Source: Methanobacteriota archaeon
GTDB lineage: Archaea; Thermoplasmatota; Poseidoniia; Poseidoniales; Poseidoniaceae
Assembly: GCA_038141355.1 (NCBI GenBank)
Contig: JAYQHX010000002.1
Location: forward strand, 933,900 to 997,899
Direction: 5' to 3'
Length of the DNA: 64,000 nucleotides
In this document: one piece after another, positions 1,140-26,219 of the stretch
Position numbering within the stretch: the stretch's first letter is position 1
Layout of the letters: every line of letters starts with the position of its first letter
Notes under the pieces: model-generated
The model's input: only the letters and a program-made list of their open reading frames with translations
Told to the model about the DNA's origin: nothing
Databases searched by the model: none
Translations under genes and position numbers: made by a program

Positions 1140-2392
1140 TTGTCCGAAGTAGGATATATTGAATTACTGAAATCCAATAAAAAATTCAGAACATTCTGGA
1201 TTGCTGCGGTAGTTTCAATGCTAGGTGAGTGGTTCAATACCATTGCTTTATTTACTTTAATTCTTATTTACGCAGGAACAAATTCAGAAGAGTTAATCGG
1301 TATATTGTTAACAATTCGAATGATAGGTTTTGCAATTTTACAGCCAATTACTGGTTTGCTAGCAGATAGGTGGTCTAGAAAATGGATAATGGTTATTACA
1401 AATTTCTTGCAAATTGGCTTGGCATTATGTTTCCTACTCGTAGATGGAAGTGAAGACATTTGGTGGCTGATAATGTTATCAGGAGTAATGATGATTCTTC
1501 ATGGCGCATACATGACGTCAGAAAGGGCTGCGATACCCAATATCGTAAGCGAAAGAGAATTGGCGACTGCCAATGCTTTAGATGCTGCAACGTGGTCAAC
1601 AGCTTTGGCTTTCGGAGCAGCTTTAGGTGGAGTCATAGTGTCCAATTATGGAACTGATGCCGCTTTTATCATCGATGCTGTAACATTCCTTCTTGGGGCA
1701 TTAATTCTACTTCCATTACATGTTCCCCAAACAGTTAGTGAAGAGATGAAAGGGCCTTTATTCAAAACTGCTTTTTCTAATATGAAGGCTGGAGCAATGC
1801 GCGTTTACAGAGAAGCCCGATTACGAAGGATTGTACTTGCCAAAACAACATGGAATCTAGCGGGAGGGGGCTTGCAGGTGTATTCTTAGTTATTGCAGGA
1901 TCTAGGATGACTCCAGGAGAATTAGCGGCAGGAATTGGTATCTTCTTCATGGCTAGGGGCATTGGTACTGGAATTGGACCAATTATAGCTAGAAAATATC
2001 TGACAAATACGGCACGATGGCCAGCATATATCGGTATATTAGTTTCGATTTCCGGGTTCTTCTATCTTCTAGTGGGTCTGACCCTTTACCAAAATCTGAT
2101 ATTGACGATTTTATTGGTTATTACAGCACATGCAGCCAGTGGTGCAAACTGGGTATTATCGACCATTCTTACGCAACAATGGGTAGAGGATGAAAAACGG
2201 GGACGTGTTTTCAGCATTGATATGCTTTTGATGTCTGTATCATTTAGCATGAGCACATATACAGCAGGATGGTTGTTATCCAATACGAAATTATCTATCA
2301 ATCACGGAATGATATATTTCTCAATTGCAATGATGCTGTTTGGAATTATCTTCACGCTCTGGAGGCCTGAAAATCACAAACATGCTTCGTGA
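1140..2392 (+). CDS. MFS transporter, interrupted by a frameshift at a G5 run (~1866-1870)
   Basis: ORFs 1140..1889 and 1850..2392 overlap and together give a 12-TM MFS-like protein. The junction is GGGAGGGGG. TTG start. Confidence 0.6.
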
Positions 2393-15758: not shown

Positions 15759-17320
15759 ATGACTGGCCAGAGAAAAGAAATCTGGCAAACATTAGGTGGA
15801 TTGAATATATCTAGGATATATGGCCCTGATGAAGCAGGAAATGCTCCTTATACGCGCGGTATTCACAATACGATGTATAGGTCAAGATTATGGACAATGC
15901 GTCAATATGCTGGATTTGGCAGTGCCGAAGAAACGAATCAACGTTTCAAATTGTTATTGGATAGAGGCCAAAAGGGATTGTCTGTGGCATTTGATCTGCC
16001 AACCCAATTGGGTTTGGATGCTGATGATGTCTTCAGTGAAGGGGAAGTAGGTAAGGTTGGTGTATCAATTTCATGTTTGGATGACATGCGGATATTACTG
16101 AAAGATATACCTCTAGAAAAGGTATCAACTTCTATGACAATAAACGCACCTGCAATGGTTTTATTGGCAATGTATGTATTAGTAGCAGAAGAAAATGGTG
16201 TTTCGTCAAAGAAAATTCGAGGAACTATTCAAAATGATATTCTGAAAGAATATATTGCAAGAGGGACGCATATCTTCCCTCCAAATGAATCATTAAGACT
16301 CATTACAGATATCTTTGAATATTCTAAAGAAAATATACCAGAATGGAACACAATTTCAATCTCCGGATATCACATTCGTGAAGCGGGATCTACAGCTGTT
16401 CAGGAAATTGCTTTCACAATATCTAATGCGCTAGAATATGTAGACGCTGCAATAAAATCAGGATTAGATATCGATGAATTTGCACCGCGAATTTCGTTCT
16501 TCTTTAATTGTCACAACGATTTCTTTGAAGAAGTATGCAAATTTCGAGCAGCGAGAAGGTTGTGGTACACATTGATAAGTGAAAGATATAATCCTAGCAA
16601 TCCAAAGAGTTCTCAGTTAAGATTCCACACTCAGGTAGCAGGTGTATCATTAACTGCTCAACAACCATTGTACAATATATCAAGAGTCACAATCCAAGCT
16701 TTGGCAGCAGTTTGTGGAGGAACTCAGAGTTTACACACCAATTCATACGATGAAGCACTAGGCCTACCAACAGAAGAAAGCGCTACAGTTGCATTAAGAA
16801 CACAACAAATCATAGCAGAAGAGAGCGGGGTAGCAGACGTTGTAGACCCTCTTGAGGCTCTCATTATGTCGAGCAGATGACAGATAAAATTTACACTGAA
16901 TCACTCGAACAAATTATGAAAATTGAGAAACTAGGCGGTGCACTCAAAGCAATAGAAGCAGGCTACCAACAAAAAGAAATTCATGATGCTGCTTGGAAAC
17001 ATATGAATCAAGTCGAGTCTGGTGAGCGAAAAATTGTTGGCGTTAATTTTGCAACATTAGACAACGAAAAGATGCCGCCAGTACTGAAACCCGATCCCAC
17101 TATTGGAATCTCTCAGTCTAATAAGTTGAAATTACTTAGAACAAATCGAGATGGAGTATCAGTAGAACGTGATCTCGAAACACTTCGTTCGGGATGTGTT
17201 TCTGGCGCCAATCTTTTTCCATTAGTTATACAATGTCTAAAATCAGATTGTACTCTGGGAGAAATCATTCAAGTTATGAAAGACCAATTTGGGACTTGGA
17301 TGTCCCCCAGTGGATTTTGA
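15759..17320 (+). CDS. methylmalonyl-CoA mutase large (catalytic) subunit, split by a 1-nt frameshift near 16855
   Basis: 15759..16880 matches the MCM N-terminal domain ([33 protein letters not shown]). The C-terminal 147 aa continue in another frame ([12 protein letters not shown]...VGVNF). Expected DPLGGSYY is broken at TTGAGG. Confidence 0.8.
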
Positions 17321-17330
17321 GGTGATTATA

Positions 17331-17739
17331 TTGAAGATATATCTAGACCATGTAGGAATCGCTTGTGATAATCTAGAAGATGCATCTCCGTTTTGGCGAA
17401 TGATTGGATTAATACAGGGACATGATGAACTAGTAGAAGACCAAGGTGTAACAACCAGATTTTTTGAAACTAGTAAAGATGACAATAAATCTCCGAAGAT
17501 TGAACTTTTAGAACCCACAGAAGAAAATACTCCAATCGGCAAATTCCTAGCGAAAAAAGGCCCAGGGATTCAGCAAATTTGTTTCAGGGTAGAAGATATT
17601 GAATCCTTGATACAAAAATTAATTGAAAATGGTATTGTAATGGTAGATGAAAAACCAAGAACTGGAGCAAACGGTGCGTATTGCTTTTGTGCACCCGAAA
17701 AGTACTGGTGGCGTCTTAGTTGAGTTATCACAGTATTAA
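17331..17739 (+). CDS. methylmalonyl-CoA epimerase (VOC/glyoxalase family), C-terminus shifted by a frameshift near 17675
   Basis: LDHVGIACDNLE, IELLEP and GPGIQQICFRVEDI motifs. The canonical C-terminal AFVHPKSTGGVLVELSQY is encoded in the +1 frame, ending at TAA 17737-17739. TTG start. Confidence 0.7.
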
Positions 17740-17764
17740 TTCAAACCTTGAGAGCTGAACATCG

Positions 17765-18589
17765 ATGAATCAAATAGAAGATTTACTATCCCTTGAACGA
17801 GTTAGTAAATCATTTGGCGACGTGGAGGCTTTGATAGATATCGATTTCAAAATTCAAACCGGACAAGTGATTGGGTTGGTTGGAGGAAATGGAGCCGGTA
17901 AAACCACTCTCCTACGATTAATTTCTGGCGTGCTTAATCCCACAACTGGCAGTGTATTGTTTCGGGGAGAGAATGTGTCATCAGTGAGACAAAAAGTCGG
18001 TGTTGTACCAGAATCAACCGGCTTGTATGCTCGGTTAACAGCGTGGGAAAATATTCGATTCCATTCTAGAATTCACGGTATCTCAGATGATGTATCTTGG
18101 AACAGGACATGCTTTTTTGCAAAAAAATTAGATATTGAAGATGCGTTATCTAGACACACTAAGGGATTTAGTAGGGGAATGCGCCAAAAGATCGCTTTAC
18201 TGAGGGCTCTAGCACACGGCCCAGATATTCTGTTGCTTGATGAACCTACAGCAGGGCTTGATGTGACAAGTGCCAGAACAGTTAGAAAACTCGTTGGACA
18301 ATTGAGGGACGAAGGAGGTACTGTAATTTACAGCACCCATCATTTAGCAGAAGCAGAACAAGTTTGTGACCGTATAATAATTGTTCATAATGGCACGATT
18401 AGAGCAGATGGCTCTCCTGAACAATTGATCAATCAAGCCGGTGTGAATACCCTAGAACAAGCATATGTCGAATTAACCAAAGACAAAGCAAGACCGAGGT
18501 CTGACGTAAAAAATGAAGATGGTAAAGTATCAAAATGGTGGAGCAAAATTTTGACCGGTTCTACACCTAGTGAGGTGATAGAGGATTAG
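17765..18589 (+). CDS. ABC transporter ATP-binding protein (ABC-2 type exporter)
   Basis: Walker A GGNGAGKTT, signature and Walker B LLLDEPTAGLD, H-loop. Confidence 0.85.
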   Translation: MNQIEDLLSLERVSKSFGDVEALIDIDFKIQTGQVIGLVGGNGAGKTTLLRLISGVLNPTTGSVLFRGENVSSVRQKVGVVPESTGLYARLTAWENIRFHSRIHGISDDVSWNRTCFFAKKLDIEDALSRHTKGFSRGMRQKIALLRALAHGPDILLLDEPTAGLDVTSARTVRKLVGQLRDEGGTVIYSTHHLAEAEQVCDRIIIVHNGTIRADGSPEQLINQAGVNTLEQAYVELTKDKARPRSDVKNEDGKVSKWWSKILTGSTPSEVIED

Positions 18590-19802
18590 TGAATTCACAA
18601 GAATTGTAAAAGAGATAGCAAAAAAGGAAGTCCTTGAATTTGTACGCGATTGGAGAACTATATTGGCAATTATCATAATTCCCTTACTACTATTTCCGAT
18701 TCTATTTATCGCATTTCCGTTATTGTTAGAATCTGAAGCCCAAGAATTAGAATCCATTGATGTAAGCATAGTCTGGCAAGGTGAACTGAATCAAGAATTG
18801 AGTGATTTATTCAATGATTCCAATATACAATATGATTTACAAAATTTACCCGTTGGCATGGAAAATTTATCTAGTCCTGGTGACGATTTAGAAATCGTTC
18901 GAACCCAGAATGTTGATGCTGTTTTTAGATTAACCAATGATTCAAGTTCTTGGAAATTCGCAATAATATACCTATCAACAAGTGAAGCATCTAATGAAGC
19001 GAGGAGTAGAATTCTTGAATCGATATCGATTTGGGAAAATGATTTTGTTAATGGCACACTTCTTGCCGCCGGATTAGTTCCAGAGGACACCTTAGACCCT
19101 ATCAAGTGGGATGGAGATTGGGAATATGCAGATGCAGCAACAAGAGGAGAGCAAGCAGGATTAGCATTATCACTATTTATTCCATTAGTCATTGCGATAT
19201 GGACTGCATCAAGCGCTATACAGCCAGCAATTGATATGACTGCAGGCGAAAGGGAAAGAGGTACTCTCGAAGCTTTACTTTCATTACCGGCCAGTAGATT
19301 ACAATTATTGGCTGGAAAATGGACTGCAGTGGCATTCATTACAAGCGTAGGTGTAGCATTACAAATTGCAGGTTTATTATTTGCAATAACATACCTAGCA
19401 TCTAATTCTATATTGGGAGTTCCAGAAATTTCTTTGTTAAGTATATCGCTAATGCTGCTAGCAGTAGTCATATTCGCCATTATGACAGTCGCATTCGAAT
19501 TAGCATTAGCAATGAAAGCGCATAGTGTAAAAGAAGCCGGAACATTACTTGGCCCTGTAATTATAATGATTATATTCCCAGCACTGTTTACTCAGGTGAT
19601 TAATTTAGATGGCATCGAGTCGTTTTGGTTCGCAATCCCCTTGGTTAACATATTATTGGCTTTGAGAGAACTATTACTTGATCGTGTAATCTTTGAACAT
19701 GTAATTGTATGGCTTGTTTCTAGTGTATTTTATGCAACACTTGCGGCTCTATATGCTGCAAAGCAATTCAAGAGAGAAGATTTGGTAGCATCGTTATCAT
19801 AA
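18585..19802 (+). CDS. ABC-2 family transporter permease
   Basis: The frame is open from 18582 and encodes the typical permease N-terminus (EIAKKEVLEFVRDWRTILAIII) upstream of the listed TTG 18663. Six predicted TM helices. Start codon uncertain (non-ATG, or another frameshift). Confidence 0.7.
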   Translation: MSEFTRIVKEIAKKEVLEFVRDWRTILAIIIIPLLLFPILFIAFPLLLESEAQELESIDVSIVWQGELNQELSDLFNDSNIQYDLQNLPVGMENLSSPGDDLEIVRTQNVDAVFRLTNDSSSWKFAIIYLSTSEASNEARSRILESISIWENDFVNGTLLAAGLVPEDTLDPIKWDGDWEYADAATRGEQAGLALSLFIPLVIAIWTASSAIQPAIDMTAGERERGTLEALLSLPASRLQLLAGKWTAVAFITSVGVALQIAGLLFAITYLASNSILGVPEISLLSISLMLLAVVIFAIMTVAFELALAMKAHSVKEAGTLLGPVIIMIIFPALFTQVINLDGIESFWFAIPLVNILLALRELLLDRVIFEHVIVWLVSSVFYATLAALYAAKQFKREDLVASLS

Positions 19803-19851
19803 TATTAGCCAAGTATTCATCTAGTATTACTCTAGTAATATTAATAAATAT

Positions 19852-20040
19852 ATGTACATAGGCGATAATGTGCCAAAAATCAGTCTTGACATGCCTAGCC
19901 AATTGCTAGATGATCTGAAAACTCATGTTGGAGATGATGGAAAATTTGTATCTGTAGCCGATGCAATAAGGACAGCATGTAGAAAACTCTTGGACCAATT
20001 AGATGCGATAGATGCACGGCATGGGAGAATGGAGGAATAA
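19852..20040 (+). CDS. ribbon-helix-helix (CopG/Arc family) putative transcriptional regulator
   Basis: 62 aa. KISLDMPSQLLDDLK fits an N-terminal beta-strand plus helix-helix. AT-rich TATA-like sequence and an inverted repeat lie immediately upstream. Confidence 0.5.
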   Translation: MYIGDNVPKISLDMPSQLLDDLKTHVGDDGKFVSVADAIRTACRKLLDQLDAIDARHGRMEE

Positions 20041-20042
20041 CA

Positions 20043-20612
20043 ATGACGACTAAGGATGAAGCAATGGAGGCTGTGAAAGTAATTCTCGATTATATCGAAG
20101 GAGATCACACTAGAGAAGGTTTAGCAGAAACTCCTGAGAGAGTAATAAGCTCCTTTGAAGAAATTTACTCTGGTTATTCATTAGAAGCATCTGAAGTCCT
20201 TTCTTCTACCTTTAACGGTGAGGGTTATGATGGAATAGTTTTGTTAAGAGATATAGAATTCCATTCGACATGTGAACATCATTTACAGCCCTTTAGTGGA
20301 CGAGTTCATGTAGCATACATTCCAACTGAGAGAATAGTAGGAATTAGCAAATTAGCAAGAATCGTAGAGTTGCACTCGAGAAGATTGCAAAATCAAGAGC
20401 GAATTACTAAAGGTGTGGCAGATGATATTGAACAACATCTCAACCCACTTGGTTGTGGTGTCATAATAGAGGCTGCACATGGGTGTATGCAGTGTCGCGG
20501 TGTCAAAAAACAAAATGCAGTCATGACTACAAGTGCAATGCGTGGAGTTTTTTTTGACAGAAGTGAAGCACGATCGGAGCTAATGCAGTTAATCCAAAGT
20601 GGTCCATTGTGA
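20043..20612 (+). CDS. folE: GTP cyclohydrolase I (FolE type)
   Basis: ETPERV...SSTCEHHLQPF...RIVGISKLARIV and RRLQ.QERIT motifs. Confidence 0.85.
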   Translation: MTTKDEAMEAVKVILDYIEGDHTREGLAETPERVISSFEEIYSGYSLEASEVLSSTFNGEGYDGIVLLRDIEFHSTCEHHLQPFSGRVHVAYIPTERIVGISKLARIVELHSRRLQNQERITKGVADDIEQHLNPLGCGVIIEAAHGCMQCRGVKKQNAVMTTSAMRGVFFDRSEARSELMQLIQSGPL

Positions 20613-20621
20613 GGTGGTGAT

Positions 20622-21218
20622 ATGGCTAAATATCCAATCGTTGAAATTTTTCATTCTGTACAGGGTGAAGGATTCCATTCAGGGGTACCTCATATTTTCA
20701 TTCGGTTCGGAAATTGTAATCTTCGGTGTGAATGGTGTGATACTGATTTTTTAACATACAAAGAAATGGAGTTAGACGAAATCATTGATGAAATCAAAAA
20801 ATTTGATTGTGAGAGAGTTATTTTTACAGGCGGAGAGCCATGTCTACAAGACTTAGCTACGATTGGCAAAGTATTGAAAAATCTTGGTAAACATATCTCA
20901 ATTGAAACCAACGGGACAATAGAAGTTCCAGAGATTATCGATTGGATATGTGTTTCACCTAAAGATCAGGTCTATCCTAATGTATCAATCAAACAAATTA
21001 GTGGTGATGAGTTAAAAGTAGTCTACTGCGGACAGGATTTAGATATGTATGATAGCATAAAAAATAATTTTACTCATAATTTTATACAACCTTGCTACAT
21101 GGATAACCTTTCAGTGGAAGAGAATGGTAAACTGTTCTCTCTCGTTGAAAAATTGGTAAAAGAAACCAAAGGGTGGAGATTATCTTTGCAAACCCACAAA
21201 TGGATGGGGGTTGATTGA
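20622..21218 (+). CDS. queE: 7-carboxy-7-deazaguanine synthase (radical SAM)
   Basis: N-terminal IVEIFHSVQGEG and CNLRCEWCDT Cx3Cx2C-variant cluster typical of QueE. Confidence 0.85.
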   Translation: MAKYPIVEIFHSVQGEGFHSGVPHIFIRFGNCNLRCEWCDTDFLTYKEMELDEIIDEIKKFDCERVIFTGGEPCLQDLATIGKVLKNLGKHISIETNGTIEVPEIIDWICVSPKDQVYPNVSIKQISGDELKVVYCGQDLDMYDSIKNNFTHNFIQPCYMDNLSVEENGKLFSLVEKLVKETKGWRLSLQTHKWMGVD

Positions 21219-22306
21219 TGCGCGCTGTTATGTCATTTAGTGGAGGAATGGATTCCACTGGTCTTCTTCTGCGATTGCTTGCTGAAGGATACACAGTTAG
21301 TTGCATATCCTATGATTATCGGCAAAAGCACGTCATTGAAATCGAAAAAGCCTCTCAAAATATCAAATATTTGTCCGATAACGGATATAGTATTGAACAT
21401 AAAATCGTTGATTTGAGTTCAACTATAGGGATTTTCAGTAGTGCATTGACAGATTCAGAATTAGATGTACCCGAAGGATATTACGAACAAGAACAAATGA
21501 AAGCCACAGTAGTTCCAAATCGTAATGCTATATTTTCATCAATCATTTATGGATATGCCCTGTCCATACATTCAAATGAAGACGTGCCTGTGAAGATTGC
21601 CCTTGGAGTTCATTCTGGAGACCATGCGATATATCCTGATTGTCGACCTGAATTTTATGATGCTTTGGAAAAGGCATTCAATGTAGGAAATTGGGGCAGT
21701 GAGAATATTGAATTTTATCTTCCTTACCTTAACGGTGATAAAGAATCAATTCTGAGAGATGCTCTAAAGTCGACAAAAAAACTCGGTTTAGATTTTGATG
21801 TTGTTTTTGCTAATACAATTACTTCTTACAACCCAAATGAAAATGGTATTTCAAGCGGGCGAAGTGGTTCAGATGTTGAAAGAATTCTCGCCTTTGATTC
21901 AATCGGAAGAAAAGACCCGATTGAGTACCAGGAGCCATGGGGTGTTGTATTGTCAAATGCAAAGAAAGAACAATTACGATATTATGTTATGAAACAAAAT
22001 GGTACTGAGCGTGCTTTCACAGGAGAATACGATAAGCATTTTGAAGAGGGTAATTATTACTGCGCAGATTGTGATATAATTCTATTCACTTCTGACTCAA
22101 AATTTGATTCGGGGTGTGGTTGGCCTGCTTTTTCTAAAGAACATGAAACAGCTAACATAACACAATTGGAAGATACTAGTCATGGGATGACACGAATTGA
22201 AGTGAGATGTTCAAATTGTGATTCCCACCTTGGCCATCTATTCCATGAGTTCAAGGGGCCTAGATATTGCATCAACTCGATTTGTTTAGAATTTAGGAGG
22301 GAGTGA
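21215..22306 (+). CDS. queC: 7-cyano-7-deazaguanine synthase QueC fused to a C-terminal methionine sulfoxide reductase B (MsrB/SelR) domain
   Basis: SFSGGMDST PP-loop and a QueC core (YDYRQKH, VVPNRNAIF, YPDCRPEFYDAL) through ~aa 250. The QueC Zn-Cys positions read S..S.GRSGSD. The last ~115 aa carry the MsrB motifs CADCD, GCGWPAF, CSNCDSHLGHLF and RYCINS. Confidence 0.8.
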   Translation: MMRAVMSFSGGMDSTGLLLRLLAEGYTVSCISYDYRQKHVIEIEKASQNIKYLSDNGYSIEHKIVDLSSTIGIFSSALTDSELDVPEGYYEQEQMKATVVPNRNAIFSSIIYGYALSIHSNEDVPVKIALGVHSGDHAIYPDCRPEFYDALEKAFNVGNWGSENIEFYLPYLNGDKESILRDALKSTKKLGLDFDVVFANTITSYNPNENGISSGRSGSDVERILAFDSIGRKDPIEYQEPWGVVLSNAKKEQLRYYVMKQNGTERAFTGEYDKHFEEGNYYCADCDIILFTSDSKFDSGCGWPAFSKEHETANITQLEDTSHGMTRIEVRCSNCDSHLGHLFHEFKGPRYCINSICLEFRRE

Positions 22307-22307
22307 T

Positions 22308-22757
22308 ATTACAACAATAATTCGTAGATATGTTGAGACCGATACAGGCCACAGAGTACCGAATCATAAATCCAAATGTCAACACATGCATGGCCACAGA
22401 TATAGATTTGAAGCAGAAATCGAAGGTGATGTTGTAGATGTTGAAGACGTATCTGAAGAAGGGATGTTAATTGATTTCTCTGACGTATCAAAGATATTGA
22501 CTGAACAAGTTCACGATATAATTGATCATGCTTTCTTGTACTATGAAAAAGACGAGTTATTGGTGAACCTATTTGATAAAATGCCACTAGAACATAGATT
22601 AGTGAAAGTTCCATTCATTCCGACAGCAGAAAACCTTGCAAAATGGGCTTTTGAACAGGTTGCACCACATATCAAAACAGCATATGGAAACAAATTACGG
22701 TTAGTAGCAATGCATGTCAGAGAAACCCCAAAATCCTGGGCTACTTGGAAGGATTAA
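22308..22757 (+). CDS. queD: 6-carboxy-5,6,7,8-tetrahydropterin synthase (QueD/PTPS family)
   Basis: KCQHMHGHRYRFEAEIEG (Cx3HGH) motif. The frame is open from 22290 with no ATG upstream of the listed 22386, so the start is uncertain. Confidence 0.75.
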   Translation: MTTIIRRYVETDTGHRVPNHKSKCQHMHGHRYRFEAEIEGDVVDVEDVSEEGMLIDFSDVSKILTEQVHDIIDHAFLYYEKDELLVNLFDKMPLEHRLVKVPFIPTAENLAKWAFEQVAPHIKTAYGNKLRLVAMHVRETPKSWATWKD

Positions 22758-23574
22758 TCCTCTTTCTTCTATTTCTCTTCCAATTTTCATCGTTCTTAGC
22801 AAATTCAAGTGCTGTCGTTGCCTGAATTAGTGCCCCGATTAAGCGTTCTGCCTCTAAATCTGTAGGAAGACCGCGGAATATCACACGTTCAATGACATCT
22901 TGCAATAGTTCTTGTTTATCGGTATCCAGTGATTTTGATAATTCTAATACTGATTGTTTTAGAATCGTGCGCAATTCAGGTGTCATTTCCCTTTCAGCAA
23001 CTACTCCCGTAATATTACTAGAGTCGATTACTCTGTCCCGATGTAGTTCGTAAACACAATGACCAACGGCTTGGGAAAGATTCGCTATTGGATATCCTTC
23101 CCATGTTGGTAGAGTGAGCAGTAAGTCGCATTGGTCTAAGTCTTCTGTCGAAAGCCCCTTCCCTTCTTCTCCGAATATCAATGACACTTTACCCGTATAT
23201 GTGCGCATCTTTTCTGAAAACTCCCAAGGAAGTATGAAATGCCTTTTTAGAATTTTAGAACCTACCTCTCTTTTTCCACTGGTCCCAATTACCAACGATG
23301 AATCTTGAACGCATTCTGAGAGACTTTGGAATATTTTTGTATTGTCTAATATTATACCGGAATGTTTTGCTCTGTTTCTTGCCTCTTCGTCCTCGACAGA
23401 ACAATTTGGATTGACTAATGATAATTTATCAAACCCATGGTTTAGCATGGTTCGGCATACCGCACCTAAATTTCCAGGATGATTTACACCTACGAGGACA
23501 ATTTCCAATTGATAAGGAGACTCCGGCAAGGGTATTTTTTGCCGGTCACCCATCAAATTGCCTCCGTTAACCAA
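22741..23574 (-). CDS. SpoU/TrmH-family RNA 2'-O-methyltransferase (TrmJ-like) with C-terminal extension
   Basis: LEIVLVGVNHPGNLGAVCRTMLNHGF resembles the TrmJ N-terminus, followed by a SPOUT fold and a ~100 aa C-terminal tail. Confidence 0.7.
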   Translation of the reverse strand: MVNGGNLMGDRQKIPLPESPYQLEIVLVGVNHPGNLGAVCRTMLNHGFDKLSLVNPNCSVEDEEARNRAKHSGIILDNTKIFQSLSECVQDSSLVIGTSGKREVGSKILKRHFILPWEFSEKMRTYTGKVSLIFGEEGKGLSTEDLDQCDLLLTLPTWEGYPIANLSQAVGHCVYELHRDRVIDSSNITGVVAEREMTPELRTILKQSVLELSKSLDTDKQELLQDVIERVIFRGLPTDLEAERLIGALIQATTALEFAKNDENWKRNRRKRINPSK

Positions 23575-23756
23575 CGTGGATCACATGGGCCATAAAGAAA
23601 GAATACGGCTTCTTCTTCATTTTCTCTATCTGGCATAATTATCGAATGTTTCTTGAAATTATGATTATTTCGAAGATGTTGAATCAAATTTTGCAATTCG
23701 ATTTTGTCACCATGGACGCTAACGGGTGTCCTATCCCAGGCGACACGAATCGCCAT
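23553..23756 (-). CDS. hypothetical small protein
   Basis: 67-aa ORF between S17e and the methyltransferase. No recognisable motif. Confidence 0.25.
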   Translation of the reverse strand: MAIRVAWDRTPVSVHGDKIELQNLIQHLRNNHNFKKHSIIMPDRENEEEAVFFLYGPCDPRWLTEAI

Positions 23757-23765
23757 ATAATCAAC

Positions 23766-23957
23766 TCAATCGGTTCTTCTCTGACGGTATCTTGTCACGT
23801 ATCCAGCAATCCAGTTACGCAATTTTTTAGATTCAACGTCAGTTAGTTGTTCCACGACTTTCTTGTTGTGGTCGAAATCATCTGTGAATTTTTCGCCGTG
23901 CTCTTCGCACAATCTAATCGCTCTTAATTTGATGAATGTAGGTCGAATATTTCCCAT
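23766..23957 (-). CDS. rps17e: 30S ribosomal protein S17e
   Basis: MGNIRPTFIKL...NKKVVEQLTDV.SKKLRNWIAGYVTRY matches S17e. Confidence 0.85.
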   Translation of the reverse strand: MGNIRPTFIKLRAIRLCEEHGEKFTDDFDHNKKVVEQLTDVESKKLRNWIAGYVTRYRQRRTD

Positions 23958-23959
23958 AA

Positions 23960-24235
23960 TTAATCCTCCATTAGTTTTACTTCGATAGGAATGTCTGGCT
24001 CATCGTGCCTTGTAACTTGAAGTCTAATCTTTCGAGGAGGATTTTCAATCCCTCTTGCCCAAATGGCTTCATTGACTGCTGGATCTATCCATACTTCTTC
24101 CTCTTCGGTTACCTTCAAATGTTTTACAACTTCATTCTTGATAATCTGCATTGCTCTAGGTGCACGCTTGAATCGAGTAATGTTCCATGCGTTTCGTAGA
24201 GGGACAACTAATTCACTAACTGCTGCTCTTGCCAT
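23960..24235 (-). CDS. rpl31e: 50S ribosomal protein L31e
   Basis: VPLRNAW...RFKRAPRAMQIIKNEVVKH...IDPAVNEAIW matches L31e. Confidence 0.85.
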   Translation of the reverse strand: MARAAVSELVVPLRNAWNITRFKRAPRAMQIIKNEVVKHLKVTEEEEVWIDPAVNEAIWARGIENPPRKIRLQVTRHDEPDIPIEVKLMED

Positions 24236-24239
24236 TTAA

Positions 24240-24395
24240 TCACCTCTGTAGTTTGCTGCGTCTCCAGTTGTGACGCTTAGGGTGAGAAACAGTGTTTCTT
24301 GCTGTTTTTAGCATAACCCAAACTGGTACCCTGCGGTTTTGCTTGCCCGCTTTTAGTAGTCTGATTTTCTTAGCTGCTGGTTTATTTCTTGCCAT
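24240..24395 (-). CDS. rpl39e: 50S ribosomal protein L39e (51 aa, below the ORF-track cutoff)
   Basis: Manual translation of the minus strand gives [51 protein letters not shown], a clear L39e. Confidence 0.8.
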
Positions 24396-24404
24396 AATTT
24401 CACC

Positions 24405-24773
24405 TCAAATTCTTCTGATTGATACCTCTCGCTTGTTTTCCGAAAGGCCTGATAGAATCTTCTTTAATTGCGTATCATTAACCGGGATTTGAATTCGATT
24501 ATCTGAATGGAGTTTCGATAGATGTGATTTAACTTGAGTTGTTAATTCGGGATTGACAAGGTTTAGGCTTGCCAATCTGCTACGAGCATCTGGTGTTAGA
24601 ATTGTTTTCATTGCTGTATCCAATTCAGCTTGTTGGTTTTCAGCAGCCTTTTGTTGAATTTCCATTTCGGTTTGAGCCGCTGCTTGCTGCTCGATTTGAT
24701 TTTGTAATTCTGCCATTCTTTGTGCACGCAATGTGGCCAAATCATCATCGATATTCGAAGACATACTGACCAC
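24405..24773 (-). CDS. PDCD5/TFAR19-like double-stranded DNA-binding protein
   Basis: Q/A/E-rich helical N-terminus plus a conserved C-terminal region. Canonical archaeal position between rps19e and rpl39e. Confidence 0.75.
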   Translation of the reverse strand: MVSMSSNIDDDLATLRAQRMAELQNQIEQQAAAQTEMEIQQKAAENQQAELDTAMKTILTPDARSRLASLNLVNPELTTQVKSHLSKLHSDNRIQIPVNDTQLKKILSGLSENKREVSIRRI

Positions 24774-24786
24774 TACCTCACTTCCA

Positions 24787-25278
24787 TCAATATTTGGCTA
24801 ATCCTGGATACAATTCATCCGCAGATGACTTGACAGAATGTGCAGCCTCGTCCAAGAGTTTATGCCCATTTCCAGTCAAGGATCTTCCAGCATATAATTT
24901 CTGGTCACCGTCTTCTGATTCTACGGTTTTCAATTCTTTAGCCTCTACAAGTCCTGCATCGGTTAGTTGTTGCAGTGCTGTTCTAATGATATGCCTGCTA
25001 CCCATTGCTGGAGTATTCGGCCTTGAACCGTTGTCTTTTCTGCCACCAAATGATTGGGCTAGTGCATTGACTCCAATTGGACCTTCTCTGCCGACTTTTC
25101 GCAAAATAGCAGCACAGCGCATTTCCCACCAGTCATCTTGTACAGGGGGCTTTTCCTTGTGGACACCGGTTTTTACATAATTAGCCCAATCAGGTTTTGA
25201 AATTGCATCCAATCCGGATAATTTTTCAGCAACAGCTGGGTTCAATAAGTCAGCAGGGACATCAAAAAACGTCGTCAT
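24787..25278 (-). CDS. rps19e: 30S ribosomal protein S19e
   Basis: FDVPADLL, PDWANYVKTG, DDWWEMRCAAILRKV, RHIIRTALQQL motifs. Probable start at the internal MTTFFDV. Confidence 0.85.
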   Translation of the reverse strand: MTTFFDVPADLLNPAVAEKLSGLDAISKPDWANYVKTGVHKEKPPVQDDWWEMRCAAILRKVGREGPIGVNALAQSFGGRKDNGSRPNTPAMGSRHIIRTALQQLTDAGLVEAKELKTVESEDGDQKLYAGRSLTGNGHKLLDEAAHSVKSSADELYPGLAKY

Positions 25279-25388
25279 GTTAACACCAAGCAACTTGCCG
25301 ACCTTACTCCCATATATGAATGACACTGTTATTGAATAAAATTATGGATGCATGAATAGGGCACTGCGCACCAAGTTCAGTAGGATTC

Positions 25389-26219
25389 ATGAAGGGTTGC
25401 AATTTGGCCAAAAACATGAGAAAAGCATTGGCTCAAAATCCCAACCTATTGCGGACTTTAATGGGCTTAGGATTGACCCTAATTTTCTTGCTGGGTTATG
25501 CGGTCTATGGAGCAACAATTAGCACGGAGTACTACATTTACAAATCAGAATCCTTGGAGTCTGAAGTAAATACAACTTTCGATGACAGATACTACAATGA
25601 AAATTCTGATACCACGACATGGACATGGGATGCAAATGTAAACTCATTCAATCTTACTTGGCTGAATTTAAGCGTTAGTTCACTAGAAGATGGGACATTA
25701 TTGTATATTTCAAACACCGTTGGTTTATACAGCCACCCATCACTTGGGAAATCAGATGCAACTAAATTTTCATGTAAAGAAAATTGTTATTTTGCATTAG
25801 AACATAGAGTAAATTCTTCTGAAGGAGTTGCAGAAATTACCGCACTAACTAATCCCGACCCAGCAATCCGCGGTTCCGGTACTGTATACGCTGACTCTAA
25901 AGAGCAAGCAATCACAAAGGCAAGAAATATTCTTGCAAGCAATTACACCGATTCAAATTTCAAAATCACACTAGTAGAAATTGGAAATAAAGATGTACAG
26001 CCTATTTTGAGTTTCACGCAAGTAAATGAAGAATTGAGCAGTATTGAGAGATTTCAAGTCGACGCTGCAACAGAATTTATGTGGGCGCTTGCTGCAGTGA
26101 TCGGTTGTTTTAGCATGGTACTTGTTCCTTCGTTTACAATCTATTTTGCTGCTAGAGCAAAAGAAAAGAAACTGGAAGTCAAATTAGAACTAGCAAAACA
26201 GAATCTAGAAAATGAATAA
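25389..26219 (+). CDS. membrane-anchored hypothetical protein (N- and C-terminal TM, N-glycosylation sequons)
   Basis: Hydrophobic helices near both termini, NxS/T-rich middle. Directly upstream of the large surface protein. Confidence 0.5.
   Translation: MKGCNLAKNMRKALAQNPNLLRTLMGLGLTLIFLLGYAVYGATISTEYYIYKSESLESEVNTTFDDRYYNENSDTTTWTWDANVNSFNLTWLNLSVSSLEDGTLLYISNTVGLYSHPSLGKSDATKFSCKENCYFALEHRVNSSEGVAEITALTNPDPAIRGSGTVYADSKEQAITKARNILASNYTDSNFKITLVEIGNKDVQPILSFTQVNEELSSIERFQVDAATEFMWALAAVIGCFSMVLVPSFTIYFAARAKEKKLEVKLELAKQNLENE

Follow-up and report, generated by a model that had tools for sequence, protein, structure and literature searches.

A QueC-MsrB fusion protein of a Marine Group II archaeon whose QueC part lacks the four zinc-site cysteines

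The window, i.e., the whole 64,000-nucleotide stretch of DNA analysed here, contains a reading frame in which a QueC sequence with all four zinc-site cysteines replaced runs on into an MsrB sequence. A preliminary description of this locus proposed either that the zinc ribbon of MsrB substitutes structurally for the lost zinc site of QueC, or that the protein is a bifunctional preQ0 synthase and methionine-R-sulfoxide reductase. The locus raises two questions: are the fusion and the cysteine replacement genuine, and does one depend on the other?

Pfam recognises both domains, with QueC spanning residues 3-229 (E 1.4e-41) and SelR/MsrB downstream of it (E 6.2e-42), see Table 1. This confirms that QueC continues in frame into a complete MsrB, as described at first. 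The product, from a Poseidoniales archaeon (Marine Group II), would be a two-enzyme protein. The QueC part scores 142.8 bits against PF06508 (cut-off 22) and 132.1 bits against the NCBIfam QueC equivalog TIGR00364, which is below the cut-off of 150.3. The MsrB part scores 142.7 bits against PF01641 and 136.7 bits against TIGR00357, above the cut-off of 113.05. Translation probably begins at the ATG at 21218, a codon that overlaps the stop of queE; this gives 362 residues, the length of the 98% identical protein P0001. No second queC or msrB was found within the window.

Table 1. Features of the que operon in the window; positions count from the first letter of the window.
Feature	Position	Strand	Remarks
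Small conserved ORF, 62 aa	19852..20040	+	Directly upstream of folE
folE, GTP cyclohydrolase I, first step towards preQ0	20043..20612	+	PF01227, E 3.2e-66
queE, radical-SAM 7-carboxy-7-deazaguanine synthase	20622..21218	+	PF04055; TGA stop overlaps queC ATG
queC-msrB fusion ORF	21215..22306	+	363 aa from TTG; end coordinate includes the stop codon
QueC PP-loop SGGMDS (S9-S14)	21239..21256	+	Unchanged in 121 of 122 fused orthologues
Former zinc loop TSYNPNENGISSGRSGSD (T203-D220)	21821..21874	+	Four Cys replaced by S204, S214, S217, D220
Linker, residues 242-260	21938..21994	+	One continuous predicted helix (AlphaFold2), pLDDT 91-96
MsrB (SelR) domain, residues 254-361	21974..22297	+	PF01641, TIGR00357, Foldseek, invariant residues
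queD, 6-carboxytetrahydropterin synthase	22308..22757	+	PF01242

The gene order folE-queE-queC/msrB-queD is shared with relatives, and queE keeps the same position in their syntenic que operons. The conserved N-terminus of QueD starts at an ATT codon, two bases past the stop of queC-msrB. This ATT replaces the ATG of L001 and L003 and is also found in the independent contig L046. Copies of the small ORF at the upstream end, 73-80% identical, occupy the corresponding place in L001, L002, L003, L040, L042, L046 and L047. The ORF has no Pfam match and is a putative regulator of the operon, of a ribbon-helix-helix-like kind. An Rfam scan of positions 17000-26000 found no riboswitch and no other RNA.

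A frameshift or a misassembly could have joined two separate genes, and in the relative UBA443 a stop codon indeed separates the two parts. However, the fusion is shared by related genomes: it is common to at least 120 independent protein clusters from many assemblies, 68-98% identical, in both Poseidoniales families, Poseidoniaceae and Thalassarchaeaceae, and an independent contig is 98% identical to the window. Aligned by codon with genomes from two families, the frame shows no gap along its 362 codons, and synonymous differences outnumber non-synonymous ones in both domains, the pattern of purifying selection. Together these exclude a frameshift artefact. As the catalytic residues of both domains are also invariant across the fused clusters, we give an artefact of any kind practically no chance.

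The motifs of QueC have been defined by mutagenesis as SGGxDS, YxQxHxxE, VPxRN, YPDC and a tyrosine after the first cysteine, with the SGGxDS PP-loop as a hallmark (PMC13329287). Y35/Q37/H39/E42, V100-N104, Y140-C143 and Y205 are all invariant in the fused orthologues, and Y205 is the equivalent of the essential Y189 of E. coli. The catalytic core is intact, as was first noted, and every mutagenesis-tested motif is kept. From the sequence, we infer that the N-terminal 250 residues form an ATP-dependent ligase that converts 7-carboxy-7-deazaguanine (CDG) to preQ0, the archaeosine precursor.

The C(x)8CxxCxxC zinc-binding motif also serves as a hallmark of the family (PMC13329287), and it is absent from the QueC of the window. 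In the nearest homologues that have the cysteines, TCYNPDKEGRSCGKCGSC aligns to TSYNPNENGISSGRSGSD of the window with the same spacing, so the mapping of the four cysteines to S204, S214, S217 and D220 is unambiguous. The QueC part contains just two cysteines, C30 and C143 (of the YPDC motif), and there is no other in the C-terminal half of the domain. The replacement of the zinc ligands by Ser/Ser/Ser/Asp is thus borne out, with no zinc cysteine elsewhere in the QueC part. The spacing first quoted, C-x8-C-x2-C-x2-C, holds for the two short intervals but not for the long one, as the window's subfamily has C-x9-C-x2-C-x2-C. The four residues are unchanged across 122 fused orthologues, so their presence is neither chance nor sequencing noise, and such strict invariance within the fused clade indicates that the site still matters for something. 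The replacements found, SSSD in the window, SDSS in the phage type, and SSTD and SETD in others, combine hydroxyls with usually one carboxylate. Presumably, hydroxyl-carboxylate hydrogen bonds, or a hard cation, would hold the shape of the loop in place of zinc, and the QueC part itself is presumed to be metal-free.

The MsrB part is a full domain with two CxxC pairs and the catalytic cysteine, in agreement with the first description. The predicted zinc ligands C283/C286 and C332/C335, which are the two pairs of a form 1 MsrB, the resolving C301 in GCGWP and the catalytic C352 in RYCINS (codon TGC at 22268-22270) are invariant in the 122 fused orthologues. The motif columns around HLGH (H338, H341) are at least 98% conserved in the 122 sequences, and C357 is an additional, clade-specific cysteine. 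Foldseek matched the MsrB structures 6sym (E. coli), 6qa0 and 3cez with a probability of 1.00, and the QueC structures 2pg3 and 3bl5 with TM 0.74-0.80 normalised to target. The C-terminal 110 residues are predicted to form an MsrB of the ordinary two-cysteine type, with bound zinc and activity in the reduction of methionine-R-sulfoxide.

The AlphaFold model of the full-length protein has a pLDDT of 91.6 and a pTM of 0.87. The predicted linker helix connects the C-terminal helix of QueC with the N-terminal helix of MsrB and is, in the window (class A), 21 residues shorter than the linker of the class-B fusions and of the split UBA443 genes. With this pTM and the rigid helical linker, MsrB has a fixed position on QueC in the model, and some structural or functional coupling would be possible in the compact class.

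The loss of the cysteines reaches far beyond the fusion. Among the 94 nearest full-length representatives of clusters at 50% identity, 14 lack all four cysteines, and only one of these 14 has an MsrB. Many stand-alone proteins of 257-275 aa have the same SSSD loop. The QueC without zinc cysteines is a large clade, mostly of stand-alone proteins, in marine archaea, some bacteria and phages. It even occurs as a stand-alone gene, with no msrB, in operons syntenic to that of the window (L042-44, L047-49, L040), where the order is ABC transporter, small ORF, folE, queE, queC, queD. UBA443 (L003) has a split arrangement, in which the Cys-less queC ends at a TGA that is followed by the ATG of msrB in the same frame, as separate neighbouring genes inside the que operon. 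The class-B fusions are this arrangement minus the stop codon, and class A has a further 21-residue deletion in the linker. In distance trees, which are quick neighbour-joining trees with no support values, the cysteine loss is deeper than the fusion, and fused and stand-alone forms interleave. A scan of viral contigs with P0122, a virus-like stand-alone homologue, found no relative.

We suggest that the zinc site of QueC had already disappeared when an msrB gene inside the que operon was joined to it, and that the resulting protein is bifunctional with two activities that most likely are independent; we put the probability of this reading at about 0.78. The fusion would probably be a merger of two neighbouring genes, with the zinc site lost earlier and independently. 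The order of events would be as follows: the zinc site was lost in the large, mostly stand-alone QueC clade; msrB was then placed between queC and queD, a stage exemplified by UBA443; the stop codon of queC was lost, which fused the two genes; and the lineage of the window finally shortened the linker into one continuous helix. The fusion would then mainly guarantee co-expression. The intact QueC motifs and the complete MsrB support the bifunctional alternative of the preliminary description, with both activities predicted from sequence.

A cultured Flavobacterium phage bears on the function of the Cys-less clade. In its DNA a preQ0-derived base takes the place of all G, with 345,000 fdPreQ1 per 10^6 nucleotides (PMC10516641). 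The phage encodes a QueC of the same Cys-less clade as that of the window, 63.5% identical to P0294, a stand-alone clade member that in turn is ~51% identical to the QueC domain of the window. The zinc ligands are replaced by Ser/Asp/Ser/Ser, and the pathway likewise leads to a product that requires preQ0. Unlike the protein of the window, the phage QueC is stand-alone, has a long loop insertion (TSYKP...SDYKSASS type) and serves the modification of DNA, not tRNA. This evidence is indirect, as the QueC of the host could supply preQ0 to the phage. By analogy with the phage, which also encodes QueF and makes a preQ1-derived base that needs the nitrile preQ0, the Cys-less clade is likely functional.

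It could be argued that the zinc ribbon of MsrB packs on the C-terminal subdomain of QueC and replaces the Cys4-zinc, so that the cysteine loss would depend on the fusion. The pTM and the continuous linker helix do suggest a fixed inter-domain geometry, and the linker directly follows the former zinc subdomain in the sequence. However, Cys-less QueC is mostly stand-alone, including in phages and in syntenic operons without msrB, the two genes are separate in UBA443, and of the two events the cysteine loss is the deeper one in the trees. For the former zinc loop, a model of QueC only also reaches the confidence of the full-length one (pLDDT 89-90 vs 89-92). The distribution of Cys-less QueC thus largely refutes this first alternative of the preliminary description, which we consider very unlikely. 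Another proposal is that the Cys-less QueC has a changed function, i.e., that it stops at the amide ADG, as proposed for a phage QueC*, or uses another substrate and is no preQ0 synthase. The hallmark zinc motif is indeed absent, the score is below the TIGR00364 cut-off, and a 2026 family survey took an altered canonical QueC signature as predicting the loss of preQ0 synthesis. Against this, all mutagenesis-tested motifs that face substrate or ATP are kept, this is the sole queC in a complete folE-queE-queC-queD operon, and the phage makes its preQ1-derived base with a Cys-less QueC and QueF. The fdPreQ1 result in particular makes an ADG-only synthase unlikely, and we see little room for a changed function in general.

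Somewhat less remote, but still improbable, is that the fusion and the zinc loss belong to a single adaptation to life in surface seawater, with its photo-oxidative stress and possibly its scarcity of zinc. MsrB would act on QueC in cis and might repair active-site methionines such as M12 in SGGMDS, or M95, or it would put preQ0 synthesis under redox control, and the removal of the oxidation-prone Cys4-zinc would be part of the same hardening. If so, preQ0 synthesis would be zinc-independent and peroxide-proof, and the supply of the archaeosine precursor would survive oxidative bursts. This fits with msrB being within the que operon and not merely alongside it, with the conservation of the fusion across two families, with the compacted linker, with the invariance of M12 and M95 in the fused clade and with the fixed position of MsrB in the model. 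However, stand-alone and Cys-bearing relatives conserve M12 and M95 just as well, close relatives have no msrB in the operon, and we know of no chemistry that connects methionine-sulfoxide reduction with preQ0 synthesis. Fusions of neighbouring genes are frequent and often neutral.

Compared with canonical QueC (B. subtilis 3BL5, Pectobacterium 2PG3, E. coli P0AG67), the protein of the window has the same fold, motifs and folE/queD/queE partners; it differs in the replaced cysteines, an extra C-terminal helix, the fusion to MsrB and the score below the equivalog cut-off. Its MsrB part is 44-47% identical to E. coli 6SYM and human MSRB3 6QA0, with the same fold, the two CxxC zinc pairs, the resolving cysteine in GCGWP and the catalytic cysteine in RYCxN. 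However, the class of the window has a four-residue deletion before RYC and the conserved Cys357, and the N-terminal helix of MsrB is merged with the tail of QueC. MsrA-MsrB, the Trx-MsrA-MsrB of PilB, and Gat-QueC show that either domain can be joined to another enzyme. In those proteins the partners belong to the same pathway, while here they come from unrelated ones. The protein is not a Gat-QueC, the QueC fusion that forms archaeosine, as Pfam finds QueC and SelR only and no N-terminal class-II glutamine amidotransferase domain. The defence proteins QatC and Cap9 share the PP-loop ATPase core, and Cap9 (9NTO) is a weak match by sequence (E 0.032), with a Foldseek TM of 0.78 normalised to target. 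However, these proteins have remodelled active sites and belong to defence operons (QatABCD, CBASS), whereas the window has canonical QueC motifs in a biosynthetic operon; motifs, domains and context rule out a defence-type QueC.

In the searchable literature, we found no paper that describes a QueC-MsrB architecture, as only irrelevant papers were returned for such a fusion, nor one on a zinc-less QueC clade. Searches for archaeosine in Poseidoniales and for methionine sulfoxide reductase in Marine Group II returned nothing relevant. This agrees with the initial statement that neither arrangement is described for the pathway. The series from stand-alone genes via split neighbours and long-linker fusions to the compact fusion illustrates, in a clean and datable way, how genes fuse within an operon. 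QueC has been described as a zinc enzyme; a large natural clade that keeps all catalytic motifs and has no zinc ligand argues that the zinc would be purely structural and dispensable. Archaea that are abundant in the ocean have members of this clade, as does a cultured phage with fully modified DNA, and for a metal-free QueC the clade is a natural template. Equivalog models miss its proteins, and the fusion is annotated as MsrB only at NCBI and as QueC only at JGI. With such one-sided names, pathway reconstructions for Marine Group II can lose either preQ0 synthesis or methionine-sulfoxide repair.

The fused reading frame encodes 363 residues counted from its TTG codon. At 21218, an ATG shares bases with the queE stop codon (TGATG) and is also the start of the 98% identical homologue P0001, so the true product probably has 362 residues. 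It consists of a QueC domain (Pfam, residues 3–229, E 1.4e-41) and a SelR/MsrB domain (residues 254–361, E 6.2e-42). The MsrB part scores 136.7 bits, above the NCBIfam equivalog cut-off of 113.05, and the QueC part 132.1 bits, below its cut-off of 150.3. QueC and a full MsrB are joined in frame in one ORF, as the preliminary description had claimed. The databases name the protein after one half, MsrB only at NCBI and QueC only at JGI.

Canonical QueC is defined by the motifs SGGxDS, YxQxHxxE, VPxRN and YPDC plus a zinc motif (PF06508 survey from 2026, PMC13329287), and Y35, R99, Y131 and Y189 of E. coli QueC are essential by mutagenesis (PMC13329287). Their equivalents Y35, R103, Y140 and Y205 are kept in the window protein, while the only cysteines of its QueC part are C30 and C143 (in YPDC). 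The segment TSYNPNENGISSGRSGSD aligns with TCYNPDKEGRSCGKCGSC of the nearest Cys-bearing homologues at identical spacing, so the zinc ligands map unambiguously to S204, S214, S217 and D220 (SSSD), and the replacement of the zinc cysteines by Ser, Ser, Ser and Asp noticed earlier holds. The protein belongs to PF06508 but lacks the zinc motif and falls below the equivalog cut-off; it is therefore classed with a variant QueC clade that lacks the zinc site, not with canonical QueC. The MsrB part agrees with MsrB on every criterion tested, and the whole protein is predicted to work like QueC plus MsrB. Known fusions of these domains, Gat-QueC, MsrA-MsrB and PilB, each join enzymes of the same pathway. 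In the literature searched we found no report of a QueC-MsrB fusion, in line with the earlier claim of novelty, and no explicit description of a zinc-less canonical-type QueC.

In the AlphaFold2 model of the full-length protein (147-sequence alignment, mean pLDDT 91.6, pTM 0.87), the two domains are joined by a single helix, residues 242–260, and the high pTM suggests that their arrangement may be fixed. Foldseek matches the MsrB domain to 6sym, 6qa0 and 3cez (rmsd 1.5–3.5 Å) and the QueC domain to 2pg3 and 3bl5 (TM 0.74–0.80, normalised to target). Modelled alone, the QueC domain reaches pLDDT 93.6 and pTM 0.91, and its former zinc loop scores 89–90, versus 89–92 in the full-length model.

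The fusion is real. Both Pfam domains are present in all of the best 120 database clusters (68–98% identity), many of which comprise tens to hundreds of members from independent assemblies, and related genomes of both Poseidoniales families carry the fusion (loci L001, L002 and L004). Candidatus Poseidoniaceae and Thalassarchaeaceae are the names attached to the nearest relatives, which assigns the window to a Marine Group II (Poseidoniales) archaeon. The alignment of the gene with L001 and L002 spans 362 codons and is free of gaps, with synonymous differences exceeding non-synonymous ones in both domains alike. Given these clusters and alignments, an artefact can practically be dismissed. In 122 fused sequences, the QueC catalytic residues, the four replacement residues and the zinc and catalytic cysteines of MsrB are all invariant.

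Loss of the zinc cysteines extends well beyond the fusion. Among the 94 nearest full-length representatives (50%-identity clusters), 78 have all four cysteines, two have three and 14 have none; MsrB is attached in only one of these 14. A quick distance tree without support values places the Cys-less sequences, with one exception, in one clade, whose sister is a Cys-bearing protein and within which the fused proteins make up a terminal sub-clade. A profile search built on stand-alone Cys-less sequences found many more, with two loop types, TSYNP..G.SSGxSGxD and TSYKP...SDYKSASS. Their contexts include cellular loci (L032, adjoining a putative leucyl-tRNA synthetase gene) and virus-like 7-deazaguanine gene clusters: L034, with a DpdA-like gene, queD, queE and folE; L045, whose formyltransferase has a counterpart in the phage DpdN pathway; and L037, with a phage-family neighbour. 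The stand-alone SSSD-type QueC of L045 is 61% identical to that of the window, which hints at exchange of zinc-less queC between Poseidoniales and viruses. At the four positions (SSSD, SDSS, SSTD, SETD, SNDS and others), three or four side chains are oxygen donors in nearly every variant, one of them Asp or Glu, suggesting that a hydrogen-bonded or hard-cation substitute may replace the tetrahedral zinc site. By these comparisons the loss of the site would be older than the fusion and independent of it. Several QueC homologues, Cys-less and Cys-bearing (P0123, P0142, also P0124, P0145 and P0151), contain an intein (Pfam Intein_splicing) after about residue 140, adjoining YPDC.

Stand-alone SSSD-type QueC proteins (257–275 aa) are found in operons with the gene order of the window, with queD directly after queC and no msrB. 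In L042-L044 the order is ABC transporter, small ORF, folE, queE, queC, queD, and L047-L049 and L040 are similar; the taxonomy of these loci is inferred from synteny only. In UBA443 (locus L003, 56% identical), a separate msrB lies between queC and queD, in the same frame (...GSD TGA ATG NID...). Long-linker fusions, class B (P0121, P0313, P0349, P0368 and P0281; 381–392 aa), correspond to this arrangement after deletion of about seven residues together with the stop codon. In the compact-linker fusions, class A (362–377 aa), to which the window protein belongs, a further 21 linker residues are lost and MsrB is four residues shorter ahead of RYC. Such a series is what one would expect if neighbouring genes had fused and the linker had then been shortened. 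In a quick neighbour-joining tree without support values, the fused forms are intermingled with the stand-alone ones. A further cysteine of class A MsrB, Cys357 (NSICLEF), is almost invariant there and absent in class B and UBA443; it could serve as an alternative resolving cysteine.

We suggest, with a probability of about 0.78, that the protein is bifunctional, with independent activities. QueC would have lost its zinc site before the fusion; an msrB neighbouring queC in the que operon would then have fused to it, and the linker would later have been compacted. The earlier proposal of a preQ0 synthase and Met-sulfoxide reductase is supported by the conserved catalytic residues of both domains, and the fusion most likely reflects no more than the chance that the two genes came to lie side by side. 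The zinc-less clade is the more informative part. That the MsrB zinc ribbon structurally compensates for the lost QueC site, the other reading offered earlier, finds no support and is very improbable: the loss is older, most Cys-less QueC proteins are stand-alone, UBA443 has separate genes and syntenic operons lack msrB. A functional coupling of the two domains, through repair in cis or redox control, is unlikely, though less so than compensation.

Between these two in likelihood, and still improbable, is a changed function of Cys-less QueC. A cultured Flavobacterium phage has a stand-alone QueC of the same clade, lacking all four zinc cysteines, and its DNA contains 345,000 fdPreQ1 per 10^6 nucleotides, a complete replacement of G (PMC10516641). 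This base derives from preQ1 and hence from the nitrile preQ0, which points to synthesis of preQ0 by the clade rather than of the amide alone. It is possible that preQ0 in the infected cell comes partly from host QueC. No mention of the missing zinc site in the phage QueC was found in the literature searched.

Features of the window and of two related contigs
Feature	Location	Strand	Remark
62-aa ORF	19852-20040	+	directly upstream of folE
que operon		+	62-aa ORF, folE, queE, queC-msrB, queD
queC-msrB	21215-22306	+	fusion ORF
MsrB deletion region	22238-22285	+	residues 342-357, up to Cys357; the deletion falls within the usual DGPxxxGG stretch before RYC
queD	22308-22386	+	5' part of the gene; no in-frame ATG, GTG or TTG upstream of conserved N-terminus
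L045 (contig ERR11554255_114794)	1-10783		folE, dCTP-deaminase-like, queF, formyltransferase, AAA, HNH, SSSD-type queC
L049 (Tara contig)	1376-2134		QueD-like ORF after queC

Upstream of the que operon lies an ABC transporter; downstream, a SpoU methylase and ribosomal proteins are encoded on the opposite strand. The window contains neither another queC nor another msrB, and an Rfam scan around the operon gave no match. The 62-aa ORF is 73–80% identical between loci, i.e. more conserved than QueC itself, and has the same position in L001, L002, L003, L040, L042, L046 and L047. It has no Pfam match, and its consensus (MPKISLDMPxELLxDLKxHVGDxxKFVSVADAIRTACRKLLDQLDEIDxRHGR) is reminiscent of ribbon-helix-helix DNA-binding proteins, which makes it a possible regulator of the operon.

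The conserved N-terminus of queD (ITTIIRRYVETDTGHRVPNHKSKC...) holds zinc and catalytic residues. An ATT at 22308, two bases past the queC-msrB stop, occupies the position of the ATG in L001 and L003. L046, an independent contig with 98% identity, has this ATT too, and its gene was called from an internal ATG. Translation of queD may thus begin at a non-canonical codon or by re-initiation once the upstream stop is reached. In L049, the ORF after queC begins as a normal QueD and carries a tail of >150 aa in which Cys, Asp, Glu and Gly are abundant (…CGVCGGNGSSCEDEMFECFEDCSGECGG…), which may be a true fusion or an assembly chimera.
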